Assembly (NCBI RefSeq): GCF_003334815.1
Contig: NZ_QOWO01000052.1
Strand: one strand, 5' to 3'
Length of the DNA: 22,598 bases
Source: Escherichia coli
GTDB taxonomy: Bacteria > Pseudomonadota > Gammaproteobacteria > Enterobacterales > Enterobacteriaceae
Shown here: one piece after another, positions 7,891 to 12,765 of the stretch
Layout: the number at the start of each line of letters is the position of its first letter
How positions within the stretch are numbered: the first letter of the stretch is position 1
The notes under the pieces: model-generated
Told to the model about the DNA's origin: nothing
Seen by the model: the letters and a program-made list of their open reading frames with translations, nothing else
Database searches by the model: none
Translations under genes and position numbers: made by a program

Positions 7891-8535
7891 ATGACTTCAA
7901 ATGCACCAACAAACTTTGTCCGCGCTTATCTGAGAGCTTCAACAGCAGAACAGGATGCTTCGCGTGCCCTGGAAACTATCGAGGCTTTTGCCAGGGAAAG
8001 AGGCCTGATCATTTGCAGCTATTATATTGAGAATGAATCCGGTTCCCGTCTTGACCGTCCAGAACTTTTTCGTCTTCTGAGAGATTGCCAGCAAAATGAC
8101 ATTTTGTTGATCGAGGATGTGGACAGACTTTCCCGCCTGTCAGGGGAAGACTGGAATACGCTGAAGAAAATGATCCGTCAGAAAGATATCCGGGTTATGG
8201 CCGTGAACGTTCCGACCACATGGATTAATTCTGGTATGAGTGAGTTTGATAGCCGGTTGTTTGCAGCCATTAACGATATGCTGCTGGATATGTTGGCCGC
8301 TGTTGCCAGAAGGGACTATGAACAACGGCGGGAACGCCAGAAACAGGGGATAGAGAAAGCAAGGAAAGACGGCAAATATAAAGGGCGCAAACCTAATCAA
8401 GCCAGACATGATGCAATTATCAGGTTGATAGAAAGCGGCAGTTCCTGGACACAGGTACAGAAGGTACTTGGATGCAGCCGTGGCACAATAAGCTGTGCGC
8501 TAAAACGTAAATCCCGGCAATCCACCTGTGAGTAG
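7891..8535 (+). CDS. Serine recombinase (resolvase/invertase family)
   Basis: 214-aa ORF divergent from parFG; N-terminal catalytic-domain pattern (VRAYLRASTAEQD, cf. Y.RVST..Q with a presumptive catalytic Ser) and a C-terminal HTH-like segment (WTQVQKVLGCSRGTISCALKR). Confidence 0.75.
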   Translation: MTSNAPTNFVRAYLRASTAEQDASRALETIEAFARERGLIICSYYIENESGSRLDRPELFRLLRDCQQNDILLIEDVDRLSRLSGEDWNTLKKMIRQKDIRVMAVNVPTTWINSGMSEFDSRLFAAINDMLLDMLAAVARRDYEQRRERQKQGIEKARKDGKYKGRKPNQARHDAIIRLIESGSSWTQVQKVLGCSRGTISCALKRKSRQSTCE

Positions 8536-8568
8536 GGCAGGGCGAAAAGGAAGCGATTATCCTGAATA

Positions 8569-8833
8569 AGGGGTTGTATGCCGGAAACGCCGAAATTTCC
8601 GATACAGAGAATTTGTTGATTTTTACAGCATGTTTGGCAAGTTTTGACGTGTACGTTTATTGTGCAATAAGTAAGAATTTGTCCGTACCAGCTATGTGAT
8701 ACGTTACGAGCAGTGATTTTTCGCTCTAAACAGCTATTTCTTTGCTGTCCGGTTAACAGCGGTCTTGCGTACAGGTTGCCGAGCGCAAAATTTATGCATT
8801 CCGGAAATTTTGGCTGTTGCGGCTTGGAACCCC
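8569..8833. repeat. Left arm of a 265-bp inverted repeat
   Basis: 8569-8833 is the reverse complement of 11522-11786 with only a few mismatches (e.g. ...gccggaaacgccgaaatttccgatacagagaatttgttgatttttacagcatgtttggcaag...). Confidence 0.9.
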
Positions 8834-9141
8834 CTTATACATTAAGATTGACGAAATTTATCCGAACATAAGCAAATGACGGAGTTCGCGTACCTCAAAG
8901 ATGAGTTAAAGTTATTGGACTTCGAGAAGGGATGATAAAGATTTGCGTTCTTTAGAAGCGAAAAACCCCAGCAGAGCCGGGGTCCTTCAATTCTTTTGCC
9001 GGATGTGCCTTCACTAGAACCCATGAAACATGGGGGATGATTCAACACTGGCTAACGTTATGTGATTACAATAGCGTAATATAGTCTGTACGTCAATGCG
9101 CATAGAAATCGAGACAGGGTAGTCCCTGAACAGGAGATTAA

Positions 9142-10086
9142 ATGCCTCAAAGAATCAATGATTACAAACCTGTACTTTCACTACTATCAACAGCAAGGCT
9201 TGCAAGCGTTCCAGCTATCTTTAACGTACACACCGATTTGGAAAAGTATGGATTTAGTCTGTGGATCCAGAACGCAGCTGCCTCACTCTATCCACTTGTG
9301 CAGCAACTTGAATTGGTTCTCAGGAATTCGGTTGATAAAGCAGCTCGTACAAGATTTGGTGAACGGTGGTGGGATACCATCTCGTATGATACGACGAAAG
9401 ACAATCACGATAAGTTCATCAATTGCATCAGAGATGCTGAACGGAGCTTATTAAAAAAATGGAAAGCCAAAGAGGTCGCTCGCCTTGGTTTAAGCCATCC
9501 ATCGCAAATAACAACGACGCCACCAGTTTTTTCACATGATGATATTATTGCAGCGACCACATTTTCCACATGGGAGAATGTTTTTCTTGAGGCGCTTCAT
9601 ACAGACGATAACGCTAAAAAAAATGATTTCCTTTGGCCTAACTCTCTTCCAAAAGCTCTGAGAAGGCTAAGTGTAATTGATAACAAACCCGTCGAGGCTC
9701 GTCGTAAGTTATTGAATCTACTCAAAGAGATAAGAGACTACCGCAATAGACTTTTTCATCATGACTGTATCTGGATAAAAATTAAAACTGTAGATAAACA
9801 GACTGCAATTGAATCAATTCGTGAAAAAATCAATCTAATCGAAAAGATCATAACAGCGATCAGTCCTGTAACTAACCGCGCTTTGACTGCGTGGGGTATG
9901 TATGAAAATGCCCGCAGAATCTGCTCCACTGCAGAACTATCCATTTATACAAATCTTAACTATCAGGTACCAAACATAGCTACGCCAGGGCTGCTTGGTC
10001 AATTAATGCTTCAGACAAATGGTGGAAAAGAAACGGTGCCTATGATGCTGCAAAATGAGGCCTGTGTTTTCTATAAATTAAGGTGA
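9142..10086 (+). CDS. Abortive-infection candidate, Abi_2 (AbiD/AbiF-like) family
   Basis: 314-aa ORF with a strong SD (aggag 7 bp upstream); contains IRDYRNRLFHHDCIW, matching the R-N-x-x-H-H pattern I recall for AbiD/AbiF-type proteins; sits in an IS-scarred cassette. Confidence 0.5.
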   Translation: MPQRINDYKPVLSLLSTARLASVPAIFNVHTDLEKYGFSLWIQNAAASLYPLVQQLELVLRNSVDKAARTRFGERWWDTISYDTTKDNHDKFINCIRDAERSLLKKWKAKEVARLGLSHPSQITTTPPVFSHDDIIAATTFSTWENVFLEALHTDDNAKKNDFLWPNSLPKALRRLSVIDNKPVEARRKLLNLLKEIRDYRNRLFHHDCIWIKIKTVDKQTAIESIREKINLIEKIITAISPVTNRALTAWGMYENARRICSTAELSIYTNLNYQVPNIATPGLLGQLMLQTNGGKETVPMMLQNEACVFYKLR

Positions 10087-10367
10087 AAGTACATAGCTTT
10101 AGCGGAAGCGAGACGCCGCATGTCAGCGGCTACTATCAAAACAGATGATCTCCCGCTACCCATATTTTCCTGGTTCTCCCTGTCTGGCCATCAGAGTAAA
10201 CTGGTGGGGCAGGGAGGCATCTCCTTCAGGAACGGCTATCCAGCCGCAGCTTTTCAGCAACTCATTGAGCGCTTCAGCCTGCCCGCTTATTCTGGCTGGC
10301 ACTGGTAGATGATATGACCTTTATATACTCACTATAGCATTGGTGGGATATTCCAGAGGAGGTCATC

Positions 10368-11337
10368 ATGCATTCGGAAAATATTGCGGCTTACGTCGGG
10401 CTGGATGTGCATAAAGAAACGTTGGCGGTTGCTATTGCTGTACCTGAACGGCTTGGCGAAGTTCGTTATTATGGTACGATTAACAGACAGAATCAAAAAT
10501 GATCATCGGGACGCAATTTCTCTCGCCAGGTTACTGCGGGCTGGAGAACTTACCCCTGTCTGGATCCCTGAGCTGACTCATGAAGCTATGCGGGATCTAA
10601 TCAGAGCCCGTGCAGCAGCTAAACGAGACAGCAGAGTTGCCCGACAGCGAATTCTGAGCATGCTATTGCGAACAGACAAACATTATGCTGGAAAGCACTG
10701 GACAGGAAAACACCGAACCTGGTTAGCTAATCAATCATTTAGTCAGCCATCTCAACAGATTGCTTTTCAACACTATTGTCAAAGTCTGGAGCAGATTGAA
10801 GATCGCATACTTCAACTCGACCAGGAAATATCTCGCCTGTTACCTGAGTGGTCTCTGTGCAATCTGGTCTGCCAGTTGCAGGCTCTTAAAGGTGTTGGTC
10901 AGCTAATCGCAATAACCCTGGTTGCTGAACTGGATGATTTTTCGCGATTTTCCAATCCCAAACAGCTCATGGCTTTTTTGGGACTGGTGCCAGGTGAATA
11001 TTCCAGTGGAAACAGTATTCGTCCCAGAGGAATAACAAAAGTTGGAAACAGCGAACTGAGTCGTCTGCTTTACGAAGCCGCCTGGTCTTATCGTACACCT
11101 GCAAAAGTTGGTGCATGGCTTATATATTACCGACCGGATTCTGTAACACAATATTCCAAAGATATTGCATGGAAAGCTCAACAACGATTGTGTTCTCGTT
11201 ACCGAAGTCTGACAGCAAAAGGGAAAAAATCACAAGTAGCCATTACGGCGGTGGCTCGTGAGTTGACTGGATTTATGTGGGATATTGCACTTGCTGCCCA
11301 TCATCATTCAGTCAGCAGAAGCAAAATTAAACCCTGA
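10368..11337 (+). pseudogene. IS110-family transposase remnant (frameshift plus internal deletion)
   Basis: ATG at 10368 (SD aggagg) gives MHSENIAAYVGLDVHKETLAVAIAVPERLGEVRYYGTINRQNQK then a stop; the rest (NDHRDAISLARLLRAGEL...KGVGQLIAITLVAELDDFSRFSNPKQLMAFLGLVPGEYSSGNSIR...) continues in another frame; most of the N-terminal catalytic domain between the VGLDV and NDxxDA motifs is missing. Confidence 0.7.
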
Positions 11338-11521
11338 ATTTGTTTCCCTTCTTCATTGAAGGCGATGTCCAGAGCGCTTTTCAGAAGACAGATGCTGTTT
11401 ACTGATGCCGAGGTCTGGATTCGGTGCCGGCCAGTCCAGTCTCTGTTGCTAAGGGCCTGATAGACCCAGGCATGACCCATCAGGAGTTCCATGGCGTAGG
11501 TCAGCCGGAACATATCATTTT

Positions 11522-11786
11522 GGGGTTCCAAGCCGCAACCGCCGAAATTTCCGGAATGCATAAATTTTGCGCTCGGCAACCTGTACGCAAGACCGCTGTT
11601 AACCGGACAGCAAAGAAATAGCTGTTTAGAGCGAAAAATCACTGCTCGTAACGTATCACATAGCTGGTACGGACAAATTCTTACTTATTGCACAATAAAC
11701 GTACACGTCAAAACTTGCCAAACATGCTGTAAAAATCAACAAATTCTCTGTATCGGAAATTTCGGCGTTTCCGGCGTACAACCCCT
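11522..11786. repeat. Right arm of the 265-bp inverted repeat
   Basis: Reverse complement of 8569-8833. Confidence 0.9.
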
Positions 11787-11803
11787 ATCTGCGTGAAGGT
11801 CGA

Positions 11804-12262
11804 ATGTCAGCCAGGTACGCAACAAGCGCTGTTGGCGTCGACTTAGGGACCCTTCTCACGGTGAAAAGCTGGTTGCCGGCCGTCTGCATCGCGATCTGGA
11901 ATCAGCATCAGGGAAAGTACTGTGGGCACGTAAAAAAGCCCGTGTTCGCGCTATCCATTCAAAACAGCAAAGACGCTCTGTACAAATTTAGCACGGCGTA
12001 TGCGGCAATCTTCCTTCGTAGGCAAAATGGCTAAGAGCGCTTTAGACACTGGCTGGTCAATGCTCAAAAAACAACTGAAATACAAGGTGATAGCACGGTC
12101 AGGGGGGGCGTCGTAAACGACAGTTATTCCACCTAGGGTTTTTCATGCTCTCCTGGAACTGCTCATGACCCCGACGTAAACACCGAAAAGAACATTCTCG
12201 CGACGGGGCACGCCGTTCTGTCTGTGGAGGGTGGGACAGTCAGGGGGCCCGTTGAAGCATAA
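11804..12262 (+). pseudogene. Degraded TnpB (IS200/IS605-family OrfB) remnant
   Basis: Fragments across three frames: AVGVDLGTLLTV (cf. VGIDLGLK), MAKSALDTGWSMLKKQLKYK (cf. DAGWG.F...LEYKA), and AHDPDVNTEKNILATGHAVLSVEGG (cf. TnpB C-terminal DADVNAA.NIL..G); interrupted by stops and frameshifts. Confidence 0.55.
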
Positions 12263-12765
12263 ATCCATGCTTTTCAGGACGAGGGGGCTCTTAAAAGAAG
12301 TATAAGAGAATAGTTATCACATTTCAGATAATTTTCATCTTAATTATTTAACCAGATACCATGTATCAAGTATTAGTAAGAATATAAACTAGTTGATTGC
12401 ACAAGTAACAAACAAAATATGCATTAATAATACATAAAATATTGCGTGGTAATATTTTATGTATTTTTTTATTTCTAAAATATGTAAAATATTTAACTAC
12501 ATTTACAATTCATTACGCAAGGTATTTTTGTGATAAAAAACCAAAAAACAACACAATCGTAGTTGATTGTATTGCGCATTTATACTAAATTAGTGTTATA
12601 TACTAGATTGGTGTGTTATTTGTGATTTTTGTCTTTTTTATGTGTTTGTGTGATTTTTAATAAAAGCATCTTCACAGAATTAATTTTATGAATATACTTT
12701 TCGTAAAAACACAGGCTGCCCGCTTAATTATATTTCTGGCTTTTCATTAACGACGGAGCGCTGAA

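Follow-up and report, generated by a model that had tools for sequence, protein, structure and literature searches.

Two unrelated insertion sequence relics lie in plasmid modules that meet at a Tn3-derived miniature element in Escherichia coli

The window analyzed here, a 22,598-nt stretch of Escherichia coli contig NZ_QOWO01000052.1 (assembly GCF_003334815.1), carries between positions 10368 and 12262 the remains of two mobile-element genes, an IS110-family insertion sequence (IS) transposase and a TnpB-like protein, next to a block of fimbrial and autotransporter genes. The two relics are unrelated and permanently inactivated, and each lies in a module of its own; the two modules adjoin at a 264-bp Tn3-derived inverted-repeat miniature element (TIME). 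All coordinates are window positions, and element boundaries were taken from the open reading frame (ORF) listing, self-comparison, and plasmid alignments.

Comparison with other plasmids places the limit of the IncX1 backbone that is common to many of them at ~8519-8545, just past the resolvase gene (7891-8535). The first copy of the TIME follows directly (8570-8833, minus strand), and after it comes an intact phage-defense gene of 314 aa (9142-10086, plus strand), which PADLOC assigned over its full length to PD-T4-5 (E = 3e-131). In relatives this gene is annotated as an Abi family protein (WP_001376111.1), and its match to Pfam Abi_2 is weak; it is the only intact gene between the TIME copies. 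Next is the 3' part of a DUF2913-family gene (10117-10307, minus strand), a dead copy of ISEc45 (10308-11338, plus strand; IS110 family, IS1111 type), a central portion of that DUF2913 gene (11339-11521, minus strand), the second TIME copy (11522-11785, plus strand), and a TnpB pseudogene spread over three frames (11786-12262, plus strand), TnpB being the RNA-guided nuclease of IS200/IS605-type elements. Beyond the TnpB relic are an AT-rich spacer, fimbrial chaperone/usher genes, and an S6-family autotransporter (SPATE), for which names were partly taken from the annotation of plasmid pISHS7_3. Both relics were found where the original prediction had placed them, with similarity far beyond chance, but they are not stacked on each other as it had described, since 183 bp of the DUF2913 gene and the 264-bp TIME separate them.

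The ISEc45 relic and its insertion site

The IS110-family relic appears in the ORF listing as a 44-aa ORF beginning MHSENIAAYVGLDVHK at 10368, followed in a different frame by a 317-aa ORF that runs to 11337. A megablast search of PLSDB matched positions 10305-11338, in two pieces, to genes annotated as "IS110-like element ISEc45 family transposase" on hundreds of plasmids. We used the copies on pAA of E. coli O104:H4 (L001) and on pMRSN16333_p1 (L006) as intact references, and an empty ISEc43 site (L005) served to delimit the full element. The intact element is 1446 bp long (L006 1220-2665), with a coding sequence at 1280-2413, 60 bp upstream and 252 bp downstream of the gene, subterminal repeats ATGACCTT/AAGGTCAT, and a layout of the IS1111 type. 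The relic is 98.6-99.4% identical to ISEc45 over 1,032 bp (99.4% at 10307-10485 and 98.7% at 10483-11338) and has the same left terminus and left subterminal repeat. Its 317-aa ORF scores 213 bits on the NCBIfam model transpos_IS110 (cut-off 140), and the match starts only at model position 81.

Three lesions separate the relic from the intact element. The first, seen in a multiple alignment, is a 170-bp deletion after 10482 that removes codons 40-95 and shifts the reading frame. It takes 56 of the 377 residues, including E64 of a putative D13/E64/D102/D105 tetrad whose residue roles are inferred from the family, and leaves D13, D102, and D105 in place; the frameshift reported in the original prediction is thus real, whereas its statement that most of the N-terminal catalytic domain has gone is too strong. 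The second lesion is a 1-nt deletion after 11299 that alters the final ten residues, and the two deletions together leave no complete DEDD transposase frame. The third, which the original prediction had not seen, is the loss of the right end: the sequence stops 8 bp past the authentic stop codon, at 11338, and 244 bp comprising noncoding region and right end are missing along with 2 bp of target. The left end and the ATGACCTT repeat are kept, and AAGGTCAT and the right terminus lay in the lost 244 bp. In IS1111-type elements, the noncoding region downstream of the gene encodes a seekRNA without which the element neither forms circles nor transposes, and both of the ends, along with the target flanks beside them, are needed as well (PMC11187229). 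With its three lesions, the relic can therefore make neither transposase nor guide RNA, nor can it move in trans.

A scan of the window and of intact ISEc45 against Rfam returned no bridge- or seek-RNA family and no other RNA. The 3' noncoding region of intact ISEc45 does contain, at L006 2489-2500, the segment CACGTAGAAAGA, in which a match to CACGTA on the top strand of the left flank of the IS66-family target is joined to a match to GAAAGA on the bottom strand of its right flank. Such a pattern is what would be expected of a seekRNA or bridge-RNA guide, and the segment is missing from the window copy. The endpoint of the third lesion lies only 2 bp past the IS/target junction, the uninterrupted sequence being GGTA^AT|ATTTG in three DUF2913 genes; this near precision (11331-11345; L009 2682-2700) may reflect chance or an aberrant transposase-mediated event.

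The flanks of the relic are two halves of one gene. Positions 10117-10307 are 92% identical to Enterobacter plasmid pUPC1 (L009 2501-2691) and comprise the last ~50 codons of the DUF2913-family gene, with its stop at 10156-10158, and the sequence downstream. Positions 11339-11521, with 93.5% identity to L009 2694-2878, correspond to approximately residues 93-153, and the gene is cut on its 5' side by TIME copy 2. When the two pieces are joined, they give a single uninterrupted match to a DUF2913-family gene of Enterobacter plasmids (92%, query positions 31-404). The insertion lies at approximately codon 153 of this minus-strand gene, and two target bases (AT) that three uninterrupted DUF2913 genes have are absent at the right junction. 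Since both DUF2913 halves flank the relic, ISEc45 made a simple insertion, and this rules out the relic as a marker of a module boundary. Nothing here shows that ISEc45 mobilized neighboring DNA. An origin of the flanks in an IS66-family transposase gene was considered and ruled out by tblastn, and the flank peptides had no match in NCBIfam.

The choice of target differs from what is usual for this element. As a rule, ISEc45 occupies a single fixed position within IS66-family elements, ACGTA^ATTTTTCTTTCC, and the site used here, GGTA^ATATTTGTTTCC, resembles it. Elements of the IS1111 group that target other mobile elements are known from the behavior of the IS4321/IS5075 type; ISEc45 usually targets IS66-family elements, and the window copy instead took a look-alike site in a DUF2913 gene. 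On pAA of O104:H4 (L001 2937-4447), the host of ISEc45 is an ISEc43-like element of the IS66 family from which 152 bp beside the left end of the IS are missing, unlike in L006, where the insertion is a simple one.

The TnpB relic and the age of the lesions

Six-frame translation of 11786-12300 gives GVDLG, ARVRAIHSK..R, KMAKSALDTGWSMLKKQLKYK, and HDPDVNTEKNILATGHAV distributed across three frames with stops between them. The motifs stand in the right order, from the GVDLG of RuvC-I through DAGW...LxYK to the C-terminal HD.DVN...NIL, and are those of TnpB proteins of the IS200/IS605 family. The three-frame breakup described in the original prediction was borne out by a tblastn search with the intact 378-aa TnpB of Salmonella plasmid pRSE40, which aligned to 11822-12223 in frames 1, 3, and 2 with a joint E value of 9e-18. 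The pRSE40 protein is the nearest intact relative that was found (231 bits on NCBIfam guided_TnpB), and identity to it is 69-77%, counting the two best segments only. The frame-stitched peptide of the relic matched NCBIfam IS200_TnpB with E = 7e-4, and one ORF fragment matched guided_TnpB with E = 0.008.

Unlike an IS200/IS605-family TnpB, the relic holds approximately the C-terminal half only, covering about residues 193-372 of the 378-aa relative, with stops and internal deletions. A loss of ~75 bp has largely deleted the zinc-finger segment, and the N-terminal half is absent, cut at 11785/11786. There is no tnpA beside the relic and no TnpA homologue in the window, nor does the relic have recognizable element ends. 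Neither relic is functional, as had been proposed, in the one case because of the ISEc45 deletions and right-end loss and in the other because of the stops and the missing N-terminal half.

A longer, also broken copy of the TnpB relic is present on Salmonella Newport plasmid pSNE1 (L007), and that copy still has its WED-domain region as well as the zinc finger, which the window copy lost. Identity between the window and pSNE1 is 92.4% in the TnpB relic and 96.5% in the adjoining fimbrial block. We read this as a neutral decay of TnpB that would have begun before the fimbria/SPATE block spread to Salmonella and E. coli plasmids.

A different TnpB element is found on the plasmid closest to the window, pISHS7_3 (NZ_CP092255). 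There, an intact IS200/IS605-family element with divergent tnpA and a 402-aa tnpB (L004 4625-6373) takes the place of window positions 11124-12127, a stretch that in the window holds the last part of the ISEc45 relic, the DUF2913 fragment, and TIME copy 2 together with most of the older TnpB relic. A live TnpB element thus stands immediately upstream of a dead, unrelated TnpB tail. We rejected this element as the parent of the relic, as their amino acid identity is only 46-55% over short segments and the element lies upstream of the same old relic.

The lesions in both relics recur elsewhere. All three ISEc45 lesions are also present in IncI-gamma/K1 plasmids from pig and chicken (L003), and the 170-bp deletion is present in pISHS7_3, an IncX1 plasmid from a cat (L004). 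In a metagenome contig (L012), 8570-11577 aligns gap-free at 99.7% identity, and the deleted form of ISEc45 gives a single unbroken match of 99.9% to the IncI-type record MT158481 and to a dog plasmid. The TnpB relic is broken across frames in the Salmonella plasmid as well. Because the same lesions are found in at least four independent assemblies, they are inherited and not assembly errors, the possibility that the original prediction had itself named as a refutation of its reading.

A 264-bp element at the meeting of two modules

Self-comparison of the window revealed that the 264-bp sequence at 8570-8833 recurs, inverted, at 11522-11785 with 98.9% identity. The copies differ at three positions (8811, 8815, and 8579, corresponding to 11544, 11540, and 11776), all of them in the terminal repeats, and are identical over a 200-bp core. 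The termini of each copy read GGGG...CCCC, with inverted repeats of ~32-34 nt, and 34 of the first 50 positions match between the two ends. The right-hand repeat agrees at 31 of 33 positions with a repeat adjoining, on a Klebsiella plasmid, the 3' end of a Tn3-family tnpA that has a resolvase gene next to it, and a similar repeat of a Tn3-family transposon has been published (PMC6851574). One Tn3-family element with matching ends is on Klebsiella pL4FAA5_1 (NZ_CP115832, 34.6-37.9 kb). Copies covering at least 80% of the length were found on 211 PLSDB plasmids; almost all other copies on plasmids reach at most ~92% identity, compared with the 98.9% between the two copies in the window. The Tn3-like terminal repeats and the widespread copies identify the 264-bp element as a TIME (PMC4133298).

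This element does not appear to have a name. MITESen1, the TIME first described on IncX1 plasmids, was rejected by sequence, as were IS101, IMU, TIME244, and MITEKpn1; these five comprise the TIMEs previously tied to resistance genes and the enterobacterial MITEs (miniature transposable elements with inverted repeats) of ISfinder except the ERIC-type MITEEc1 (PMC13367494). The comparison by sequence covered these five named elements. In length and structure the window element resembles described TIMEs, among which Pseudomonas TIME1-4 (KJ920397-99, KJ940992) are 262 bp long (PMC4133298), being noncoding and 264 bp long with GGGG termini and inverted repeats of the Tn3-family type. None of the plasmid records that were examined has a mobile or repeat element annotated at its TIME copies, and TIMEs are invisible to gene-based annotation in general.

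The two copies coincide with the limits of homology to other plasmids. On the left, the outer terminus of TIME copy 1 is the precise start of homology in three contexts, namely, IncX1 plasmids, IncI-gamma/K1 plasmids, and the metagenome contig, in which the flanks at the terminus are AATAA, ACAAA, and TTTGT. In the TTTGT context (L012 182-805; ERZ1032816 NODE_416), the TIME-abi unit lies directly against an IS91-family-like transposase gene, at that gene's 3' end, according to our reading of the ORF translation. In the IncI-gamma/K1 plasmids and the metagenome contig, this left-hand module occurs without the virulence block. On the right, homology to pSNE1, a plasmid of a different replicon type, begins exactly at 11786, and the pSNE1 copy of the TnpB relic extends further left than this limit. 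TIME copy 2 is thus bordered by a truncated DUF2913 gene to the left and an unrelated, truncated TnpB pseudogene to the right. The original prediction took the relics to mark the junction between the replication/partition backbone and the adhesin/SPATE block. It was right that the region is a mosaic junction, and the fimbria/SPATE block does have the TnpB relic at its left extreme, but the backbone ends ~1.8 kb upstream, ISEc45 lies in a separate module, and the join is at the TIME at 11522-11785.

An account with two dead relics in separate modules joined at a TIME is, in our view, probably correct as a whole; the anatomy, the lesions, the continuity of the DUF2913 halves, the module limits, and the Tn3-type ends of the TIME are shown, and its part in making the join is inferred. 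Module A (8570-11785) consists of a TIME, the PD-T4-5/abi gene, the DUF2913 fragment, and a second TIME, and module B, from 11786 onward, of the fimbria/SPATE block with the TnpB pseudogene at its left edge. In this scheme, ISEc45, directed by its guide RNA, once inserted into the DUF2913 gene of module A and then lost 170 bp, one further base, and its 3' noncoding region with the right end, while the TnpB pseudogene at the edge of module B would already have decayed before the block spread. The right TIME copy joins the modules and cuts both neighboring genes, and if the TIME made the join, the two relics would be passive passengers.

As to how the join was made, we lean slightly toward two routes taken together, either transposition of the TIME by a Tn3-family transposase acting in trans or homologous recombination of TIME copies that lay in different replicons, with target duplications lost later. 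TIMEs that lack direct repeats and lie beside the 3' parts of different genes have earlier been read as products of recombination between copies (Szuplewska et al., PMC4133298), and many described TIMEs, like the one here, lack direct repeats and lie between truncated genes (PMC4133298). Several observations weigh against our account. The flanks are AATAA/CTTAT at copy 1 and ATTTT/TATCT at copy 2, so there are no 5-bp direct repeats around either copy or around the pair, and the signature of a single intramolecular replicative transposition (an inverted duplication) is missing from these flanks too. Target-site duplications of TIMEs are 5 bp long, sometimes 6 bp, and the window thus carries no direct footprint of TIME transposition. 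No Tn3-family transposase with matching ends is present in the window. Neither the right TIME-TnpB junction nor the whole two-TIME unit was found in PLSDB, complete E. coli genomes, GTDB representative genomes, or metagenomes, and the right copy recurs on just one metagenome contig, which ends inside it.

Alternative accounts of the mosaic

We considered whether the 3.2-kb segment at 8570-11785 might instead be a TIME-COMP, that is, a pair of TIMEs with bracketed cargo, which transposed as a unit into an IncX1 plasmid beside the fimbrial block and whose direct repeats were erased later by adjacent deletion or recombination. In keeping with this reading, two inverted TIME copies bracket 2,688 bp of cargo, in all three contexts the unit begins on the left with a TIME terminus, and the start of the right copy is present on the metagenome contig. 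TIME-COMPs with inverted TIMEs, some of them without direct repeats, have been documented (PMC13367494), and described TIMEs and TIME-COMPs are, like the element here, mainly plasmid borne, with an inverted pair that brackets cargo (Szuplewska et al. 2014, PMC4133298; Gomi & Yano 2026, PMC13367494). However, the outer flanks differ (AATAA and TATCT), the IncI plasmids are without the right copy, the closest IncX1 relative has the left copy only, and no complete instance with direct repeats was found. We therefore regard a transposition of the whole unit as possible but doubtful.

It is with the same reserve that we propose 8570-11785 as a candidate mobilizable TIME-COMP, bounded by an apparently unnamed 264-bp enterobacterial TIME and with PD-T4-5 as its sole intact cargo. 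Its cargo, a phage-defense gene and debris, would differ from that of described TIME-COMPs in not being a resistance gene. TIMEs have recently been shown to move resistance genes, and a TIME pair around a phage-defense gene would modestly extend that role. If this candidate is correct, Tn3-derived miniature elements would also shuttle defense genes between IncX1, IncI, and other plasmids.

The original prediction held that the virulence block was acquired by IS-mediated events and then stabilized by IS decay, which would mean that ISEc45, the TnpB element, or both brought the adhesin/SPATE block and that their decay locked it in place. In keeping with such an origin, the TnpB relic stands at the left limit of the block that is common with the Salmonella plasmid, and module borders are commonly marked by IS relics. 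Against it, ISEc45 is inside the DUF2913 gene with both target halves kept, as in a simple insertion, and its module occurs without the virulence block. Furthermore, IS1111-type elements insert as discrete units at sites specified by a guide RNA (PMC11187229), the TnpB relic is without tnpA and is not repeated at the opposite end of the block, the Salmonella relic reaches further left than the module limit in the window, and the backbone edge is at ~8520-8545. Considering these points, we judge that acquisition of the block through either IS is improbable. Our preferred account, in which the modules were joined at the TIME, leaves the relics as neutral and ordinary plasmid debris, useful as lineage markers for the IncX1 fimbria/SPATE plasmid family only. 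A short Tn3-derived element is a more likely builder of the mosaic than the conspicuous transposase genes.

It is less likely again that TIME copy 2 originated from copy 1 through a replicative transposition within the molecule that entered the TnpB relic and inverted the segment between them. The two copies are in inverted orientation, and neither has a closer relative than the other (98.9% identity, compared with a maximum of ~92% for nearly all others), as this origin would suggest. It predicts, however, that the right flank of copy 1 is the reverse complement of that of copy 2, and likewise for the left flanks, and what is observed is CTTAT against AGATA and AATAA against AAAAT. The three differences between the copies, all within the terminal repeats, also speak against it, and the flanks could be reconciled with it only if further deletions were assumed. 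Last, the notion that the frameshifts and deletions are assembly or sequencing artefacts in genes that are really intact found no supporting evidence and has practically no chance of being right, given the lesions shared by the independent pig, chicken, and cat assemblies, the gap-free matches of the metagenome contig, MT158481, and the dog plasmid, and the multi-frame relic in Salmonella.

A minor feature lies to the right of the relics, in the spacer between the TnpB pseudogene and the first ORF of the fimbrial operon (12766). It is an AT-rich imperfect palindrome at 12426-12493, with 18-nt arms that are 94% complementary and 7 nt apart, accompanied by neighboring repeats, and it may be regulatory.

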